From the NCBI GenBank assembly GCA_051599415.1, contig AP039707.1, forward strand, positions 124,001 through 188,000: 64,000 nucleotides of DNA, given 5' to 3'. The position numbers were made by a program, and so were the translations under genes. The notes beneath the pieces are model-generated. The model saw only the letters and a program-made list of their open reading frames with translations, did not search any database and was not told where the DNA came from. Source of the DNA: Savitreella phatthalungensis (lineage: Eukaryota). Positions 47,550-59,072 of this stretch are shown here, one piece after another (positions within the stretch are counted from its first letter, which is position 1; each line of letters begins with the position of its first letter).

Positions 47550-48346
47550 CGACTGGACAAAAAGCGCACGATTTCTTGGGAGTCCAGAGTCAAGCGTCTG
47601 GTGCAAGGAATGCAAGCACCAAGAGAATCTGTAAGCGCAGTAAAGCGACTGCTAGAAGCAGCGAATAAGACGAAATAAGACTTGAAGATCGAGGGAGAGA
47701 TGGTAAAAGATGTTGTTGAAGGGTTGTTCTTGACGTCTGTGTACGTGACGTAGTACAAACATCTCCAATCAATCTATATATACACATTAAATCAAGAAGT
47801 AATCATCTTCTAATCCAGTCCATAGATTCACACTAAATATTACTAGACATGATCCAATTCTATCTTCTATTTTTATTAACAAGATTCAAAAGGTTATTAG
47901 TAAAATTGAACGTGCACGGGATTCTTATTCTTTGTCCTTTGTGCGAGGATAGCACTCGTGACAGCAACATAGACATAGTACTCACTCTTCAAGCAACATC
48001 ACCATCATCATCATCAATCTACTATACCATAAGCACAAGTATAACCACATCCATCAACGCCCTCATCTCTTAGACGTCTCTACAAGCTTATAGAAACCTA
48101 TAGACTTTTCTCTCTTTGCGCTGCTATAACAACCCCTTTTAATCAACAGCCATTCACCTTCAGCTTCGAGGTCGCCAAGAGGATGGACTAGAAGAAACAC
48201 GTTCGACGACAACAAGGTCATCTCGGAGACATCTCGTGATCTAGAGCGCTCAGAGTTCAGCCCGGGTCAGCGACACAAGCTACTCAAGAACCTGTCTGGC
48301 AGGATAATTCCAGGTTTCAGCGTGTCTGCATCGGTATGCATTTGAG

Positions 48347-49351
48347 ATGGCCTCGTCCTCAGATCCTAGAGGTAGCGGCGGAGGCGAGATGAGCGGCGGT
48401 GTGAGCGTGCTGGTGGACACGGATGGTGCGGTTGCAGGAAATTCAAAGGCCGCAAACACATCGACCCAGGTACATACCCAGACTCAGACACATGCACATG
48501 CACATGCACAGGCACAGGCACACACGCCAAAGATGCTCCCAGAGACGTTTGCAGAGTGCGAGATGACCGATCTGATCATCCTCGTCAGCGACATGATCCG
48601 TCAACTAATACACCACAACGACAGACTGCCCTTGACACCTAGCGGCCTCACGCGATTTCACAGTCGAGCGCCGCCTGGGATCTCAGTAGCTGACTACCTG
48701 TCTCGAATTGTGCGGTACACGTCACTTGAGAAGGTCTGCTTACTGTCTACGGTGATCTACATTGATCGTCTGTGTGGAGCGTTTCCTAGCTTTGTGGTGT
48801 CGTCACTGACGATTCACCGGTTTCTGATTACTGCGACGACGGTCGCGACGAAAGGTCTGTGTGACGCGTTCTGCACAAACACGCACTATGCCAAGGTCGG
48901 CGGAATCTCACTGTCGGAGCTCAACGTGCTCGAGCTCGAACTGCTCGCGAAAGTCAACTGGCGGATCCTTTGCAGTAACATGGAGCTACAGACCTACTAC
49001 ACAAACCTCTGTCTCAACAGCCCGAGGTACACCTTACCTGATCAGCCGGCACTCGTCGGCAATACCGAGCCACAGCTACAGCACCAACAGGCAGGCACGA
49101 TCGCGCAGTCGGTTCAGGGACAGAGCTCTACGAGTGAGGATGTCGAGGACGAGGATGATGGGATGTACGATGATGGTGATGAGGATAATGATCTCGTGGT
49201 TGTCGGAAGTGCTGATCACAGACCTACCGACCATAATCCACAGTACCCCACGCCACCACCACCACCGCCAACAATAACACAACCCACATCCGCAAAGTCA
49301 CCACTCAAGAGACCGTTCGATGGCACGCACACCCAGCACAGAAACCCTTAG
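48347..49351 (+). CDS. PHO80: Pho80-like cyclin (Pho85 partner)
   Basis: LTRFHSRAPPGISVADYL, IYIDRL, SSLTIHRFLIT, KGLCDAFCTNTHYAKVGG, ELNVLELE. Confidence 0.85.
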   Translation: MASSSDPRGSGGGEMSGGVSVLVDTDGAVAGNSKAANTSTQVHTQTQTHAHAHAQAQAHTPKMLPETFAECEMTDLIILVSDMIRQLIHHNDRLPLTPSGLTRFHSRAPPGISVADYLSRIVRYTSLEKVCLLSTVIYIDRLCGAFPSFVVSSLTIHRFLITATTVATKGLCDAFCTNTHYAKVGGISLSELNVLELELLAKVNWRILCSNMELQTYYTNLCLNSPRYTLPDQPALVGNTEPQLQHQQAGTIAQSVQGQSSTSEDVEDEDDGMYDDGDEDNDLVVVGSADHRPTDHNPQYPTPPPPPPTITQPTSAKSPLKRPFDGTHTQHRNP

Positions 49352-49493: not shown

Positions 49494-50738
49494 TCATCCG
49501 AGTAGGTAGGCGATGACGAGTGCGAGGACGAGTAAGATGATGGGGCTTGCGAGTGCTAGTTCCGGCCTGATGAGTTTCTGGAGTAGTCCTGGTACAGGGT
49601 GAGTGATTGGACGGAGGTCGAGGATGTTGCATTTGCCATCGATCGAGACGGTCGCTAGCCGGGATGTCCCCGGCGAGAATGCTACTGCAGAAGGAGGGAA
49701 AGCGTGTAGGACGTTAGGCTTCCATGACTTCAATCGGTCGAGAGACTGTCCGGCGTACAGATCCAACGCACCGTCGGCGTACACGACGCCGACCAGGTGA
49801 GTGGGCTGTGGGGTGGAGGTGTTACGTTTTGGAGAGGGAGCAGCATGGAGGTCTTTGATGCGCCGAGGGACCTGGATGACCTGGCGCTGGGTGGCGGTGC
49901 CTGCGATGACGTCGAGCGTGTACAGGGCCAGGTAGGAGTCCTGGCGCTTCGAGGTGGCTGGGTTGAGGGCGACGAGGAGGAGTGCATCGTCGAGCAAGGT
50001 GGCGAACTTGGCAATCCGGTAGTCTGTCAAGATCTTGTAGCTGTCAAGCGCCACAAGCACAGCCTCGTTCTCCACGTTCTTTCCCTTCAGCGCGTACGCA
50101 TACACCGCCCGCTCGGTCGCAGCCAACACGCGCTCCTCCCCGCATACGCAAACATCTACCCAAGTCTTGTCCTTGCTCGACAGGAGCGGCAAGGAGAGCG
50201 CATTGAACTTGGTCGTATCCACTACCGCAGCTCTTCCTTCTGCAGACAGGATGGCGGCATGTTTGCCAGAAGCGCTCACGCGGACCAGCTTCTGATAGTC
50301 GTCTAATTTCGGGTCTAGATCAAGCACCTGGTGTGAAAGGGAGAGTTTGATAGAAATCTTGGCCGGTGAAGCTGCAGCGGAATCCTCATCAATGCCTGCC
50401 TTATCACTCGTCCCCACAGATCGATCGACCTTGAACGTCCGCAGATGACAGTTGTCCCCCTTTGACTCCTTGCGAGCTTTCGCACTCTCGTTCACGCCGG
50501 AGATGGCAAGTCTGCCGTTCGGCAAGGTTGCCAGACACATCGGAGCGTCTTCATCAGCGGCCAGTTTCAGCTCACCCACTAAAGGAGCGTCCGGCCGTGC
50601 GATGTTGTGACAGGCAAGTCTGTTTGCAAGCCCCGTCTTGGAAGGGCCTCCACCGCCAGCTAGAAGTAGCTCATCTTCGCCTATGAAGCTTGCGCCGTAG
50701 ATTGGGAACTTGTCTATGAAGAAGGAGGTATTGGACAT
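49494..50738 (-). CDS. SEC12: Sar1 guanine-nucleotide exchange factor (beta-propeller plus C-terminal TM helix)
   Basis: FPIYG...LLAGGGGPSKTGLANRL (K loop), DDYQK, HAFPPSAVAFSP, C-terminal hydrophobic helix. Confidence 0.88.
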   Translation of the reverse strand: MSNTSFFIDKFPIYGASFIGEDELLLAGGGGPSKTGLANRLACHNIARPDAPLVGELKLAADEDAPMCLATLPNGRLAISGVNESAKARKESKGDNCHLRTFKVDRSVGTSDKAGIDEDSAAASPAKISIKLSLSHQVLDLDPKLDDYQKLVRVSASGKHAAILSAEGRAAVVDTTKFNALSLPLLSSKDKTWVDVCVCGEERVLAATERAVYAYALKGKNVENEAVLVALDSYKILTDYRIAKFATLLDDALLLVALNPATSKRQDSYLALYTLDVIAGTATQRQVIQVPRRIKDLHAAPSPKRNTSTPQPTHLVGVVYADGALDLYAGQSLDRLKSWKPNVLHAFPPSAVAFSPGTSRLATVSIDGKCNILDLRPITHPVPGLLQKLIRPELALASPIILLVLALVIAYLLG

Positions 50739-50871
50739 GAGGTCAGGAAGATTGATACAGCCTCAGTGGCTCTTTCTAGAAGTGTCTGTGGTAGAGACAG
50801 TGTAGATAGTGTATAGATGGCTGTCATACATGAGTGTCAAGTTGTCTTGTGAGGGGCAGTCGTTTGGCATT

Positions 50872-51371: not shown

Positions 51372-51458
51372 CAACCACAACCACAACCACAACCACAACC
51401 ACAACCACAACCACAACCACAACCACAACCACAACCACAACCACAACCACAACCACAA
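51372..51458. repeat. (CAACCA)~14 microsatellite
   Basis: Perfect hexanucleotide run. Confidence 0.95.
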
Positions 51459-51725
51459 CACACACAGTGTCAGCAGTTCCACCAGCAACAACCATCAACG
51501 GCCGTATGCCCACACGTATCCACCTACACGCATCCACCTACACCCACACACACACGACCCTCTACTAGCATTGACGCTGAACGGTCACTTCATCAGCCAT
51601 TCACTTCAACAACAAGCTCATCAACAATCGACCTTCTTCTAGCTACAATCCGCTAAGTCACTCATCGTCTACATCATTTGATTTTCTCCATTTCCACTCC
51701 CTCAGCTTGCTATAATCAACTCACA

Positions 51726-53546
51726 ATGCCACTCTCTTCTGCCTTTGAGTCACTCCGACGCAAGACAGCAGGACGTCGTTGACTAGGTGCGGCCTCCACT
51801 ACCAACATCAGCACCTCAGACTCCCTCAAGCCTCGTTCCAGCACACTGTCACTTCGATCGCTCTTTGTCACTCATGGTATGAGTATCATCAAAGATTCCC
51901 TCGTCTGATTGACCTTACTGACGCGATCTCCAGATCACAAGCGCAAGTCGCGTCCTTCTCTTTCCACGCTCTTCTTCGCAAATAGTCAAGCCAACGCGTC
52001 AGAAGTGACTGTCTATGCCATGAATGAGTCGGACAACATTCAAGCTCTGAGAGACGTCTCGCCCGTCAAGCGCTCTTCACCTGAAGCATCGCCTGTGCCG
52101 TCGCCGATTCAGTCGCCCTCTGCGAAGCGGATCTCCTTCGCAAATGACGATCAGCCCGTCCTGAAGCGTGCAGCCAAATCTTCATTCGATCTTCGCCGCC
52201 GAGCTGCGCTCGAACTCGAGGAACGTCTCTCTCACCGTCACAAGTCTCTTGAATGCCTACGTCCGAGCAAGCTTATGAAGATGGACGACTCGAGCGCTCG
52301 CGTCGCTACCGACACAAGCTTTATCGACTTTGCCCCAGTCATCGACCTCGCCCTCACGCTTCGACTGCAGCCTGATCCAATGATTCTCGAACCAAGCATC
52401 GTCCCTCGTTCCTCGACAGAGATTCAGGAGCATCGTGATGCCGATCAAGATCTGATTGATGCTCACATTCGTCGGTCAGCTGCTGCTGCACGTCACTTTG
52501 TCAGACAAAACTCACGCAAGTCATCTGCACCAGATGCGTCGAAGCAGGACGCTCCATCTGTAAAACCTGCTCTCGCGGTCACCTCAACAAGTGCACCGGC
52601 GAGCGACGTATCTCGCTCTTCATCACGCAGCAAGCACTCCTGGAGGACGTCTGACTACTGCCGTGGCAGCCTCGTTGGATACCGTCGATCGACCATCGAG
52701 CAGTGGCGTCCTCGTCGGACTCCCTCGTTCGTGCCATCCCCTGCGCGACTCCAGGGTGGCCGACCCGTTTCTGGGGTGAGTGCCAAGACACGTGACACCA
52801 GCACTAGCACGCCATCGCTCTCGCCGGACGACAGCGTCTCGAATGCACGTCACTCTGTAAGCGCAAGCACAACCACAAGCACAAGTGGATGTGGACAACA
52901 GCTCTCCCGTGGTGATACACGTGCGACTGCCGGTCGATCTGTCATCACCGAAACTTCAGATGTGCTGGCAAATCTTGCTTACATGGCGCACGAGCAGTCG
53001 CTCGGGCGCATCCAAATGCTCGAGTCCGTCATGGGTCCAGGTCTAACAGCATCGAAGACGGCAAACAGTGAGAATGGGAAGAGAGAGAGGAGCGTTGACT
53101 CGCTGGCAATGGAAGTCGAGCAGTTGAACGTGCATTCGTCGGAGGCTATTGATGTGCCAATCATTCAACCGCTTGATGCTCCAATCGATCTTGACAACAC
53201 GCCGATGTCAAATGCTGGACTGCATCGATTCCCTTCGAGCGAGTGGCCATTCCAAAACATCTCTGTCGAGTGGCTTGCAGGTGAGCCAGCTGAGCGTCGT
53301 GGTCGATCTCAGCTTGGCATGCGTCCACCTCCACTAGCCCCCAATCTCCACACGCACTTCAACGACCGTGAATCTACACATCTTCAAGCACGTGCTCAGC
53401 GTGTGATGTCTACCGGATCGTCCTGGTCTAGCGATAGTGGCAGATCGTCTGCATCGAGCGAGACTTCAGCCATGATGAAGCTGATGGACGTGGCGAAGCC
53501 TGACTATGAGAACCTGTGGCAATCATTTGACTATCGGATGCTGTAG
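51726..53546 (+). CDS. Ser/Arg-rich orphan. Model: exon 1 51726-51876 (in-frame TGA at 51780-51782, candidate readthrough), intron 51877-51933, exon 2 51934-53546. Alternative start at ATG 52020.
   Basis: Long ORF 51909-53546. Upstream CACA-ATG in frame. Intron GTATGA..TACTGAC..CAG removes an in-frame TGA and keeps the frame. Confidence 0.6.
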
Positions 53547-53874
53547 ACTCGGCCAATCCCATCTCTCTTTCTTCTTCTATCACTCTAATCTGCTCTACTC
53601 TCCTAGCTGGGTATCCTCGAGTGACCTATAGGTATACTGTACAGCCGCCGCCCTGAAGGCCTAAGGTGGAATCTGAAGTGCACGTGAAGGTCAAGCCACG
53701 AATGTAAACAATTTGGAGTAAGATAAGGGTGGAGCCACAAACACGTGATGGGTTTTGTCCTCCAATTTCAAAAAGTGATCAGATTCTCGCGCTCATGAGA
53801 AGATTTGAATTTCGACAAATTCTGGGATGAGTGAGTGAGTGTGTATTGGGTATAGGCATGGGCGTGGATTCACT

Positions 53875-53927
53875 GGTCAGGTCAGGTCAGGTCAGGTCAG
53901 GTCAGGTCAGGTCAGGTCAGGTCAGGT
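53875..53927. repeat. (GGTCA)10 microsatellite upstream of RPL15
   Basis: Perfect pentanucleotide run. Confidence 0.95.
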
Positions 53928-54110: not shown

Positions 54111-54722
54111 ATGGGTTCCTACAAGTACCTTCAGGAGATCTACCGCAAGAAGCAGAGCGACATCATGCGCTTCCTTCTTCGCGTCCGTTGCTGGGAGCTT
54201 CGTCAGCTGAACGTCTGCCACCGTGCCTCTCGGCCATCTCGTCCTGACAAGGCACGTCGATTGGGTTACAAGGCGAAGCAGGGATACGTGATCTACCGGA
54301 TCCGCGTTCGCCGTGGTGGTCGTAAGAAACCTGCACCGAAGGGTGCAACGTTCGGCAAGCCGACCAACATGGGTGTGAACCACCTGAAGTACCAGCGTTC
54401 GCTTCGGACGACTGCTGAGGAGCGTGTCCAGCGCCGATGCAACAACCTGCGTGTCCTCAACTCCTACTGGATCAACCAGGACTCGACCTACAAGTTCTTC
54501 GAGGTCATCTGCGTCGACCCTTCCCACAACGCCATCCGCAACGACCCACGCATCAGCTGGATCGCAAACCCAGTACACAAGGGACGTCCACAGCGCGGTC
54601 TCACCTCCGCAGGAAAGAAGTCAAGAGGTATCAACAAGGGACACAGGTACAACCACACCTCCGCAGGCAAGAACCACATCTGGAAGAAGCACAACACCAC
54701 TGTGTTCCGCCGCTACCGCTAA
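54111..54722 (+). CDS. RPL15: 60S ribosomal protein eL15
   Basis: MGSYKYLQE...[10 protein letters not shown]...[15 protein letters not shown]...[17 protein letters not shown]. Confidence 0.98.
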
Positions 54723-54813: not shown

Positions 54814-56442
54814 CTATAGTTGTGTTTGCCGTTGGTGTTGGTGTTCGAGGGCATCGAGTCTTGAGGATAGTTTGAGGACGAGCATTCTGAGACTCTCGAT
54901 CTCAAGATCTCTCACATCTTCCTCTTCACCACCTGTCGTAGAAGACCATGACGAACACCGCTCGCTCACCTTCACACTCGACCCAACCTTGCCAATCCTC
55001 CGCTTCGTCAAATTAATCACCCGCGTCCGCCCACCACCACAGCTCGCAATCTCAGGCGACAGCACCACAGGTATCGATACCTCTCCCTCTCGACATTCAT
55101 CATCTGACGATGACGATTCGGAGTCTGTGACTGCGGTTTGGGTGGTGGTCTTTTTGTGTCGTGTTGTAGGTGAAGATTTTTGGGACGCTAGGGCGGCTAG
55201 TTTTTCAGCGACGCTCTCACGGCGCATGCCGACACTCGTTCTGCGTGTCAGGACGACATCGTCATCGTCGGTCGTCGTCGTGCTACCACACCGCGGAAAC
55301 GAGTCACGTCGAAACGCCGTCGTCCCAGCAAAGCCCTGTGGGAACGACGTCAGGGAAGTCGATCGCGGTGACGAGGAGGAGATTCGGCGGACTGGGATGT
55401 CGAGGTGGTGGAAGGGGGAGGATGGGTTGTCGAGACAGAATAGGCCGGAGGTCGGGGTGGTGGAGGCGTGGGTGCGCCTGCAGGAGGATCGGCGTCGGCG
55501 GGTGGTCGGGGAAGTGGAGGAGCGTTTGGGCTTGGATGACGTGGGACCTGAACGCTTGCGCTCGAGCGCGTGACGCATGTAGCTCGTCGAGTCGTAGCTG
55601 CCGCTGCCGAAGCCGCCGGCAACACCGGTCGACTTCAGGTGCGCGTGGTACATCAGGTGGGCCGGGAAGTCGGACGCAGAGGCGGTGCTGGACGTTCGGG
55701 CCATCCGCTCGCCTTTGACGGCAGAGGGCGTCGGCGGTCGCTGGATCCGTCCACGTCCTCGTGAGGAAGGCTCGCTTGGCGTCAGTGTCCGCCGAGGCAC
55801 CGACAGGCTAGACCGCGGCGACAGGTCAGACTCGTGGTCTTCTGGCTGTGGCGACTGCATGATTGTAGACAGGTTTGGCCGGCGTGTAGAGGATGAGCGG
55901 CGCTGGGAGAGGGCAGATGTTGTGGTTGTGGGTGATGGTGAGAGGGACTCTACCATGGCTTGCTGGGCCAATGCAATCTGCGCCTTGTACTCTTCCAGCG
56001 AGAGCTCTCGGCCGTGCGGCCGGAAACTCTGGCGCGTCGTGCCGGTGGACGATGTCGAGGATGGCTGTCGCGCCATTGACTGAGCCGCGCGCGCATCAAA
56101 GTACGCTGCGCGCTGCTGGTAGATGTATGCGGCACCCGTCGGGAGAATTGGCACCATGCCAAGGCCGTTGATAACCTGGCCGTCTGTCGCTGCGATTCGT
56201 AGTGTAGCTTCCGAGGAGGCGGATGTTGTGCGAGGCGAGTATTGCACGTCTACTTGGTGCTGGGCCAGCGTGGGGTCTTCCTCGTCGTCTGCCGGTGTGG
56301 CCGGCATCGAAGGATCTTCTGTCTCCGGGGAAGAGACGGCAAGGATCGGGCTCAGCGCCTGCGATACAGGTCTGAATCTCAGCGGCACATACTCGTAGTC
56401 ATCCTCATCCTGCTGCTGGACCACTCGAGTTGCCGACAACAT
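54814..56442 (-). CDS. Hypothetical Ser/Thr/Arg-rich protein with a C-terminal coiled coil
   Basis: 542-codon ORF ending DLEIESLRMLVLKLSSRLDALE. Confidence 0.7.
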   Translation of the reverse strand: MLSATRVVQQQDEDDYEYVPLRFRPVSQALSPILAVSSPETEDPSMPATPADDEEDPTLAQHQVDVQYSPRTTSASSEATLRIAATDGQVINGLGMVPILPTGAAYIYQQRAAYFDARAAQSMARQPSSTSSTGTTRQSFRPHGRELSLEEYKAQIALAQQAMVESLSPSPTTTTSALSQRRSSSTRRPNLSTIMQSPQPEDHESDLSPRSSLSVPRRTLTPSEPSSRGRGRIQRPPTPSAVKGERMARTSSTASASDFPAHLMYHAHLKSTGVAGGFGSGSYDSTSYMRHALERKRSGPTSSKPKRSSTSPTTRRRRSSCRRTHASTTPTSGLFCLDNPSSPFHHLDIPVRRISSSSPRSTSLTSFPQGFAGTTAFRRDSFPRCGSTTTTDDDDVVLTRRTSVGMRRESVAEKLAALASQKSSPTTRHKKTTTQTAVTDSESSSSDDECREGEVSIPVVLSPEIASCGGGRTRVINLTKRRIGKVGSSVKVSERCSSWSSTTGGEEEDVRDLEIESLRMLVLKLSSRLDALEHQHQRQTQL

Positions 56443-59072
56443 GGCCTAGGGAGTGACTTGAGGAGAACGTGAGGTGAGTTGCGGAACCAGCGTACCGATG
56501 ATGTCGACTTTGAGCAGGAGATGGTTGATGGAGTATGAAGAACGAAGGATGTTTCTCAAGATGTGGTGCAGATAGAGGACATGATGTACTTGGGTATCAT
56601 TCGAGAATACGGGAATGGTGGACCTGTCATCTTCTCGGTCGAGGGTGGTGATCCAGGGGCCTCTACCTCTGGTCTCGAGGGCTTCCTTCTTGCTCGAGTG
56701 TTCTCTTCCATCCTCATCGTCACCGAGCTACAGCTTGGATGGATCAAACTCACTTGCTCACTCATACTGACCCATACCCGCACCAGAAACAGACAAGTGC
56801 GAGAGTGTTCGTGTAGAAGTCTATTTTCCAGTCGGTAAGCTGAGGACCGTATGGATGGGAGATCAGATCGGGCTGACGATGTGGTCTGGACGTCTGACGT
56901 TCTGGTTGGCTGGATGAGGATTGTTTGGATTTAGGGTTGTTGACGAGGATGCCGAGAGCGCTGAGCAGGGTGTGAGTTGAAGTCTATCAGAACAGGGCTT
57001 GACAAGCGAGACATTGGTCAGATGGACAGAACGGGTTTTGGAGGTTCGTTCGGGAGGGAGTGCCGGAGTGGATTTGGATCGGACTGGCTCAAAGAGGCCT
57101 GTAAGAGGATGTCCGATATCTTGGAGAGCCTGTAGCTTTTACCGACTGATCGAGCGTATGTGAGAGAGGAAGGGAGAGTGAGAGAGAGCGAGAATGACAA
57201 GCAGTAGATAGATACAGACCTGAGAGATGAGACTGAGGTGAGCTGGTCTACCTCGGATCACAGGAAGATGACTTATCTCTCAAAAAGACAAGAGTCCGTC
57301 AGTTGAGCTTGTACATGTGTGAGACAGAGCCTAGGCCATGGAGGGGAAGGCCTGTTTGGACCAAAGAAGGGAAGTTCTGCGAGTTGAGACACGCGGTGCT
57401 GACGGGAATCTCGGGTAGGCTCGTAAGCTCGGTCTATCTGCGTTCTAAGATTAGTGGGCTCACTGACGGACAGGGCTCATCGGTTGGTGGGTTCCGAGGA
57501 AGACGAGAGCGAAGCTGGCTTGGGTCAAGAAGGTGTACGAACGGGTGAGAAAGAGAGAGAGTGAGAGTGAGTGAGGCTGGTGTGTATCAGCGACAGTAGT
57601 GAACTGCCGTTGATTGTTGAGTGTTGATTGGTTTGAGAGGAATCGCCTTTGTAGATGTGACCGTTGAGTTTAGATCTGCTTGGAGAGAAGATAGAGTGAG
57701 AGAGCGAGAGAGAGAAGGGATAGAGAGTGAGTGACCTGTGTGTGTATGTGTGTACAGGGATGTGTAGTGTCTTTTCTCAACTGTTGTAGTTTATTGTTTT
57801 TCTTTCTTTCGGGGGCTTGTGCGAGGATGACCGCATTCGGTCAAGTGAATTCCTAATCGGGCTTAGAGACAATTTCCTCATTTGGCAGGGTCGTACAAAC
57901 TCAAACTCAAAAAAGAGAAGAGCTCACTCGGGAGTCCACACTTCATCACCCAACAATCTACAGTCTGTACTCTCTCTCTGTTTCTCTCGAGTCTATACGG
58001 TATGTAGTCCTCCGATAGAGTGCCGAGACAGACGAACGGTCATGACGCTGTCCCATCGCTTGATGACATGCTTTGTGTCTCAGTGATCGAGTCCGTTGCA
58101 CCGGTCAAGCTTGCCCACTTGACTTGCTTCCTCCCAGGGAAGTGCACTTCAACGGATGACGAGCATGCATGCATATCGTTCCCTCTGATAAGCGCCCTCT
58201 CCATCGGCCGCATCATTAAGAGATCAGTGATGACGCTTCTTCGGACGTGCCCGATTGAGTACGATATGGTAGGTGATTCGAACACGACATGATAATTCAG
58301 TAGTTAGTATACATGGAAGGTTAGCATGTACGTCGCTGCATTCTGTTGTACAGACATGGAGAAAGGTCATGCATGCATTGTGAGGGTTGACTACGGATGA
58401 GCTAGCGTGGGGATATCCGCGGACCGATTGAGGGAGGGAGGGAATGCTGGCGATTGGTCTGCCTGATCTGTTTCGCCCCCTCAATCGTGCACCTCGTCCA
58501 CATACGACGAAGGTCTCGGACTTTCGGCAGACCACGTTTCTCTCATCTCGCCTCCACTCACCTATCCGAATGGATTTTCCACCATCCTGCCGTTCTCACT
58601 CACTCAATCTTCACCATCTCGATTGGGAGTGTCTGCAACGGTCGATTGTGGAGGTCAGAAGGTCACGCCTGGGAGGTGATTGAGCAAGCGAGAAGGCGGG
58701 GTCTCGCACTCGCGTGCGGATGACAGGTCACTTGAGCTTCGCAATTCACTTAGTCTTATGACCACCGGGTAAACGGGGCCGAGATCTCGATCTGATCAAG
58801 ATCAAGATCAAGATCAGATTCGTCTCCCAATCTCTGCTGCGATCTTTGAGGCTTCGCGGGCCGGACTTTGAGCGGCCCAATCGAAGGATTAGTGAATAGA
58901 CATTGACAGGCTAGCTAATGTACCAACCACCCGGATCGAGTGGCTGATCTGTGTAAAATCCTGGTAACGGTCACCTGGTCTATGAGCCTGTGGAGGAGTG
59001 ATTATCAGGAGAATGCTGGGAAAAGATTCCGGCACGAGAGAGCCCAACATCAAGACTTCGTCGTGATTGAGC

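Follow-up and report, generated by a model that had tools for sequence, protein, structure and literature searches.

The locus considered here raises the question of whether a stop codon at codon 19 of an otherwise open gene, set in the sequence context best known for leaky termination, is a device that controls translation or an accident of sequence. The gene lies in a 64,000-nt stretch of Savitreella phatthalungensis DNA (contig AP039707.1), which we refer to as the window. A first-pass annotation of the window had read the codon-19 stop as a gate opened by readthrough. Our analysis points elsewhere, and we consider it probable that the TGA is a lineage-specific nonsense substitution that arose in a leaky context, and not an evolved translational switch. 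The features on which the argument depends are as follows, all on the plus strand.

51726-51728, plus strand: start codon ATG, with A at -3 (CACA directly before the ATG)
51726..51876, plus strand: exon 1, starting at ATG 51726; 151 nt, or 50 codons and 1 nt
51780-51782, plus strand: in-frame TGA at codon 19, with CTAG directly 3' at 51783-51786
51874..51876, plus strand: out-of-frame leader ATG, opening a 25-codon ORF in the spliced mRNA that stops at 52006
51877-51933, plus strand: 57-nt GT..AG intron, with GTATGA at its start, a branch-like TACTGAC at 51916-51922 and CAG at its end
51934..53546, plus strand: exon 2, terminating at TAG 53544-53546
52015..52023, plus strand: out-of-frame mini-ORF of two codons (ATGCCATGA), whose stop overlaps ATG 52020
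52020..52022, plus strand: internal ATG, residue 80 of the spliced frame, with G at -3; a candidate reinitiation site

Read from ATG 51726, the first 18 codons give MPLSSAFESLRRKTAGRR, and beyond the TGA the same frame stays open for 31 further codons, up to 51875. The only other in-frame stop, a second TGA at 51906-51908, lies inside the intron and is removed by splicing. The intron is 3n in length. A single frame contains ATG 51726, the two TGAs and the long ORF, and the exon junction, G/AT, encodes Asp and joins the long ORF in phase. The spliced coding sequence, as computed, comprises 1764 nt, or 587 codons and a stop, with a single internal stop at residue 19. Everything that the first-pass annotation had described in this region (ATG 51726, TGA-CTAG, 31 open codons, a GT-AG intron holding a second TGA, the G/AT junction and a product of ~587 aa) is present in the sequence. 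The database protein model is shorter, at 508 aa, and starts at ATG 52020 (aligning to query residues 29-536). The overlap between the ATGCCATGA mini-ORF and ATG 52020 could affect start-site choice at this internal Met. Within the 64,000-nt window the region has no second copy.

The contigs of four sequencing runs, X1 to X4, were compared over 51560-53620. There are six runs in all, none of them recorded as RNA; X1 is the likely source of the assembly, and X2 comes from the same sample. Contigs of X1 span the whole of this stretch without a difference. At 51780-51782 both X1 (depth 51.2) and X2 (depth 7.1) carry TGA and no alternative letter; the two runs represent one sample. For that sample the stop is genuine, and a sense codon at 51780 appears in neither set of contigs. 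Although the type of X2 is labelled only "DNA?", the run is taken to contain cDNA because the spliced form is present in it: a 59-nt contig joins 51875/6 to 51933/4, skipping exactly 57 nt with GT..AG ends (depth 3.6). This bears out the 51876/51934 junction proposed in the first-pass annotation, which is seen in frame, with an unspliced contig alongside. The latter (116 nt, 51847-51962) has a depth of 5.2 and is at least as deep as the spliced path, which intron retention, pre-mRNA or genomic DNA in the run could cause. The 57-nt intron is real, but it is incompletely removed, or X2 also carries genomic DNA. X2 contigs span the entire gene, and the left-hand one runs ~130 nt past 51560 and covers ATG 51726. 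If this contig is RNA, the transcript includes ATG 51726, with the 5' end lying beyond what contigs can fix.

Runs X3 to X5 represent a different organism, coded B, and each covers a small share of the stretch. Here the X3 contig (record 7) covers 51627-51850 with 15 differences, 13 of them listed, and the X4 contig (record 10) covers 51560-51761 with 14 differences, 12 of them listed; upstream of ATG 51726, each has nine listed differences. At codon 19 the X3 contig has TCA (Ser) in place of TGA, through a G>C difference at 51781. One relative contig of one covers this site, namely X3, at a depth of 2 at which such a difference may be error; the X4 contig ends at 51761. Of the 13 differences listed for X3, 9 are also found in X4, an independent sample, so that the X3 contig is not noisy. 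Exon 1 has three more listed differences, at 51740 (T>C), 51743 (C>T) and 51752 (A>G); each is third-position and synonymous and occurs in both X3 and X4. The listed differences in exon 1 thus comprise three synonymous and no nonsynonymous changes, plus the stop/Ser site. Past the stop, X3 has no listed difference in the 58 nt from 51783 to 51840, versus nine in the 99 nt before the ATG. At the flank rate (9 in 89 eligible nt), the probability of finding none is 0.003, or 0.03 if the two unlisted differences of the X3 contig sit at its 3' end. The CTAG at 51783-51786 is likewise without a listed difference in X3, where it reads as part of the codons CTA GGT (Leu-Gly).

From these comparisons, the frame that begins at ATG 51726 appears in the relative to be open as far as the X3 contig reaches (51850) and to evolve as coding sequence. 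Exon 1 is real coding sequence, because its other differences are synonymous and the stretch after the stop is unchanged relative to the flank, and the 508-aa database model therefore lacks a genuine first exon and the 57-nt intron. The gene is better annotated as a two-exon gene of 587 codons with a premature stop at codon 19 in the sequenced strain. As to organism B, its two samples differ at five listed sites in the overlap of their contigs, 51627-51761 (51667, 51677 and 51684 in X3 alone, 51657 and 51682 in X4 alone). This points to diversity within organism B or to mixed runs.

Codon usage agrees with this assignment. A score was trained on 16 long ORFs of the window (11,166 codons); the segments tested are short, which makes the score supportive only. 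Upstream of ATG 52020, three frame-0 segments score 0.21, 0.25 and 0.18 per codon, and the gene body scores 0.18. The first two of these values belong to exon 1, with 0.25 referring to the 31 codons past the TGA. The intron scores -0.30 and the 5' flank -0.11 per codon. A coding signal on both sides of the stop was something that the first-pass annotation had proposed to test, and the frame from ATG 51726 is indeed coding-like before and after the TGA, both in the X3 comparison and in codon usage. The gene body has evolved differently: between 52200 and 52435, nonsynonymous changes make up 9 of the 11 differences listed relative to organism B, these being partial counts that extend to 52435. 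Set against exon 1, with three synonymous and no nonsynonymous differences, the contrast gives p = 0.027 in a Fisher test on the listed differences. This suggests that the disordered gene body is under very weak constraint or positive selection, unlike the first exon. The N-terminal exon is the better-conserved part of a fast-evolving, largely disordered orphan.

The description of the gene as an orphan is one that held up throughout our searches, with no homologue in protein or metagenome DNA and no Pfam family. A phmmer search of 1.84 billion representative proteins returned one match, the 508-aa protein of the window itself, which was also the only hit of a word-index protein search at near lengths; at shorter lengths, 0 of 5523 candidates passed. 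Exon 1, queried with X at the stop, gave no protein candidate. Among metagenome contigs, 71 pattern matches yielded no confirmed relative, and a 26-base pattern around the stop had no matches. The best ESM Atlas score was 0.86, under the 0.9 level for anything more than a lead. Single-sequence AlphaFold2 returned no confident fold (mean pLDDT 45.1, pTM 0.22) and only a few isolated helices. The protein is 16% Ser and has no hydrophobic segment (maximum 19-residue Kyte-Doolittle value, 1.11), and the 79-residue N-terminal extension is basic, with a net charge of +8, and Ser/Thr-rich. The product is thus predicted to be a serine-rich, mostly disordered protein. Its C-terminus is RML, which is not a PTS1-like tripeptide by the PTS1 rule.

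The surroundings of the gene contain the following genes and ORFs.

48308-49348, plus strand: neighboring gene/ORF
49494-50762, minus strand: neighboring gene/ORF
54111-54719, plus strand: neighboring gene/ORF
54814-56445, minus strand: neighboring gene/ORF

The neighbors include a PHO80-type cyclin (PF08613, E = 2e-38) and ribosomal protein L15e (PF00827, E = 3e-88), the RPL15 gene being at 54111. Two neighboring long ORFs, of 422 aa (49494-50762, minus strand) and 543 aa, matched no Pfam family. Two microsatellites were also observed. One, (CAACCA) x15.3 at 51372-51464, lies ~260 nt upstream of ATG 51726, and the X2 leader contig breaks inside it; the other, (GGTCA) x10.6 at 53875-53927, lies in the 3' intergenic region.

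How the present allele arose and what it would produce can be set out as follows. The ancestral start would be ATG 51726 of a two-exon, 587-codon gene, in which a single-base change would have turned Ser TCA into TGA in the sequenced strain or its lineage, a direction that we infer. The CTAG after the stop would then be part of the next two codons, CTA GGT (Leu-Gly), inherited and common to the relative. Because CTAG is unchanged in the relative, where it encodes Leu-Gly, the context does not appear to have been shaped for readthrough. On a transcript starting upstream, translation begun at ATG 51726 would in most cases end with an 18-residue peptide. Three routes to a long protein can be envisaged: reinitiation at ATG 52020, or leaky scanning as far as this codon, which would yield the 508-aa form without the basic 79-residue N-terminus; a transcript with its start downstream; or incidental readthrough of a few per cent, favored by the fortuitous UGA-CUAG. 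Reaching ATG 52020 would require reinitiation or scanning past the out-of-frame ATGs at 51874 and 52015. Net output is probably reduced, which would make this a loss-of-function allele, partial or complete, in a gene under weak constraint. Two of the findings to be expected of a nonsense allele are at hand, in that X3 has a sense codon (TCA) with the flanking frame intact, the other exon 1 differences being synonymous, and the stop is confirmed in X1 and X2 (51.2 and 7.1, one sample). As a counterpoint, the 58 nt after the stop without a listed difference also fit continued translation in the lineage of the window.

That last point bears on the proposal of the first-pass annotation, in which the UGA-CUAG at codon 19 has been selected as a readthrough gate. 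Under such a model most translation would stop after 18 residues, a fixed share of ribosomes would continue to give the 587-residue protein, and the stop would thereby set dosage or isoform; what tells the long form from the one begun at ATG 52020 would be its N-terminal extension, which is basic and rich in Ser/Thr. We regard such a gate as unlikely, even though ribosomes from ATG 51726, given a transcript start further upstream, would meet at codon 19 a stop in the leaky context that is best known. The motif at 51780-51786 is exactly UGA-CUAG, and what programmed readthrough calls for at the site itself, a UGA followed by CUA(G) and a frame beyond it that is open and has a coding signature, is found here, with the post-stop frame also unchanged in X3. 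UGA CU(A) was sufficient for readthrough in Ustilago maydis and HeLa reporters (PMC4207609), and UGA-CUAG supported readthrough of ~3.5 to 31% in HEK-293T cells (PMC4132726). The composition and gene structure of the window give the impression of a fungus related to U. maydis. TGACTAG is rare in the window, with 2 occurrences on both strands versus 6.9 expected from base composition, and a random TGA would be followed by CTAG about 1 time in 256, and a leaky stop alone could have been tolerated or selected. X2 contigs across the whole gene indicate that the RNA is not obviously eliminated, contigs giving no measure of level. Against this, the finding was picked for its TGACTAG motif, which makes the coincidence partly a selection effect that carries no independent weight. 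Conservation of stop and context is what separates functional readthrough from chance in the cases of PMC4132726, and the first-pass annotation had likewise named conservation of the TGA-CTAG among relatives as a check; the sole relative contig at the site (X3, depth 2) keeps CTAG but has Ser TCA in place of the stop, and the CTAG pre-exists there as Leu-Gly codons. There is no stimulatory RNA structure downstream (z = +0.67), and Rfam assigned the stop region to no family, giving only a sub-threshold chance match. The protein and metagenome searches found no relatives that could show long-term maintenance, and the readthrough described in PMC4207609 and PMC4132726 consists of C-terminal extensions only. 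Among stops between long adjacent open frames in the window, we saw no excess of TGA-CTAG and no other such case. Systematic reassignment of TGA, or a genome region with many broken genes, was considered and rejected, there being no other such interrupted frame in the window. Of the original proposal, then, the coding upstream frame, the in-frame splicing and the real TGA in a leaky context stand; the evolved gate or dosage switch is not supported, in view of the TCA in X3, the inherited CTAG and the lack of structure. A variant, in which this lineage makes three products (the 508-residue form, the 18-residue peptide and, as a small fixed proportion, the 587-residue protein) from a nonsense change tolerated or selected for the leakiest known context, seems to us equally doubtful. 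Nothing in our data supports a long-maintained N-terminal gate that was later lost in the relative.

The remaining explanations place the anomaly elsewhere. The TGA could be the older state, with an 18-codon uORF, a 5'-UTR intron and a main ORF that runs from ATG 52020, where the database protein starts; the TCA of X3, known from one contig at depth 2, would then be a derived fusion or an error. Both uORFs and 5'-UTR introns are common. We nevertheless think this improbable, since a good deal would have to be put down to chance: 77 upstream frame-0 codons that are open with body-like codon usage, a 3n intron whose splicing takes out the one further in-frame stop, changes within the uORF that are exclusively synonymous, and no listed changes in the 58 nt after the stop versus nine in 99 nt of flank. 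The recurrence in X4 of 9 of the 13 listed X3 differences also speaks against a noisy contig. A separate uORF and a non-coding leader would be expected in relatives, and what is found is a frame that is continuous in X3 to 51850, with body-like codon scores. Removal of the stop in the RNA, by use of an alternative 5' splice site or by A-to-I editing of UGA to UGG at 51782, is to our minds highly improbable. The GTs at 51775 and 51778 are in the same phase as the real donor, but GTCGTT and GTTGAC are poor donor sites by consensus, and the only joint seen is 51876/51934. Alternative introns over the TGA, with donors at 51775/51778 and acceptors at 51811/51819/51841 (37 to 67 nt), were tried and rejected for their poor donors and for want of a joint in X2; only the 45-nt combination is in frame. 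Editing was the alternative mechanism named in the first-pass annotation, and restorative editing of premature stops is known in filamentous ascomycetes (PMC10776026). In the minimum-free-energy fold the UGA does lie in a 9-nt hairpin loop, but that fold is no better than shuffled sequence (z = +1.26). The base at -1 of the A is G. Fungal A-to-I editing favors U in this position, and hence UAG or UAA (PMC11156358); of the U at -1 and hairpin-loop context that mark fungal editing, the site thus offers the loop only, and only in this fold. The X2 contig reads an unedited A at 51782, with the proviso that contigs drop rare variants, and editing is accordingly disfavored. Finally, the TGA might be a sequencing or assembly error, given that X1 possibly gave rise to the assembly and that X2 shares its sample. 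The agreement of two separate runs (depths 51.2 and 7.1), with no other letter in either, makes this extremely improbable.

What the locus signifies depends on which of these readings holds. As a plain nonsense allele in a fast-evolving, disordered orphan gene, which is the reading that we prefer, it represents an ordinary kind of event and is of modest interest. Were the gate real, it would be a case of natural readthrough setting dose or isoform at the 5' rather than the 3' end of a coding sequence, and substantial readthrough of a widespread allele would make it a rare instance of readthrough at the N-terminal end of a protein. The pair of sequences, TGA-CTAG in one lineage versus TCA-CTAG in a close relative, also provides a natural test case. 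Comparison of the two alleles would measure how far the UGA-CUAG context, together with downstream reinitiation, buffers an early nonsense mutation in a fungus.

Comparison with known systems brings out what is shared and what is particular to this gene. The PTS1-extended enzymes of Ustilago maydis and animals (Stiebler et al. 2014, PMC4207609) have the same UGA CUA G and a frame that continues past the stop. In those cases readthrough adds a short C-terminal extension to a protein that is already complete at the stop, and the motif is reported from fungi and animals alike; here the stop falls at codon 19 of 587, is not conserved in one relative, and precedes a protein that ends in RML. OPRL1, OPRK1, AQP4, MAPK10 and MDH1 (Loughran et al. 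2014, PMC4132726) carry the same heptanucleotide and show ~3.5 to 31% reporter readthrough. For these mammalian readthrough genes the same source describes UGA-CUAG as conserved across vertebrates, whereas here the stop differs between close relatives and it is the CUAG that is conserved, as coding sequence. The Fusarium graminearum "pseudogenes" with restorative editing (PMC10776026, PMC11156358) likewise have an in-frame stop in an intact coding sequence and make full-length protein conditionally. The sites edited in those cases, at the sexual stage of filamentous ascomycetes, are UAG or UAA codons in which U occupies -1, whereas the gene considered here has UGA, with G preceding the A, and its X2 contig is unedited at that position. 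In start-proximal nonsense variants with downstream reinitiation there is likewise a stop shortly after the start, here at 54 nt, with an 18-codon first ORF and an in-frame ATG (52020) that gives a truncated N-terminus. The present gene differs from them in having two out-of-frame ATGs, at 51874 and 52015, between the stop and ATG 52020, and in being a natural fungal allele, known from its sequence.
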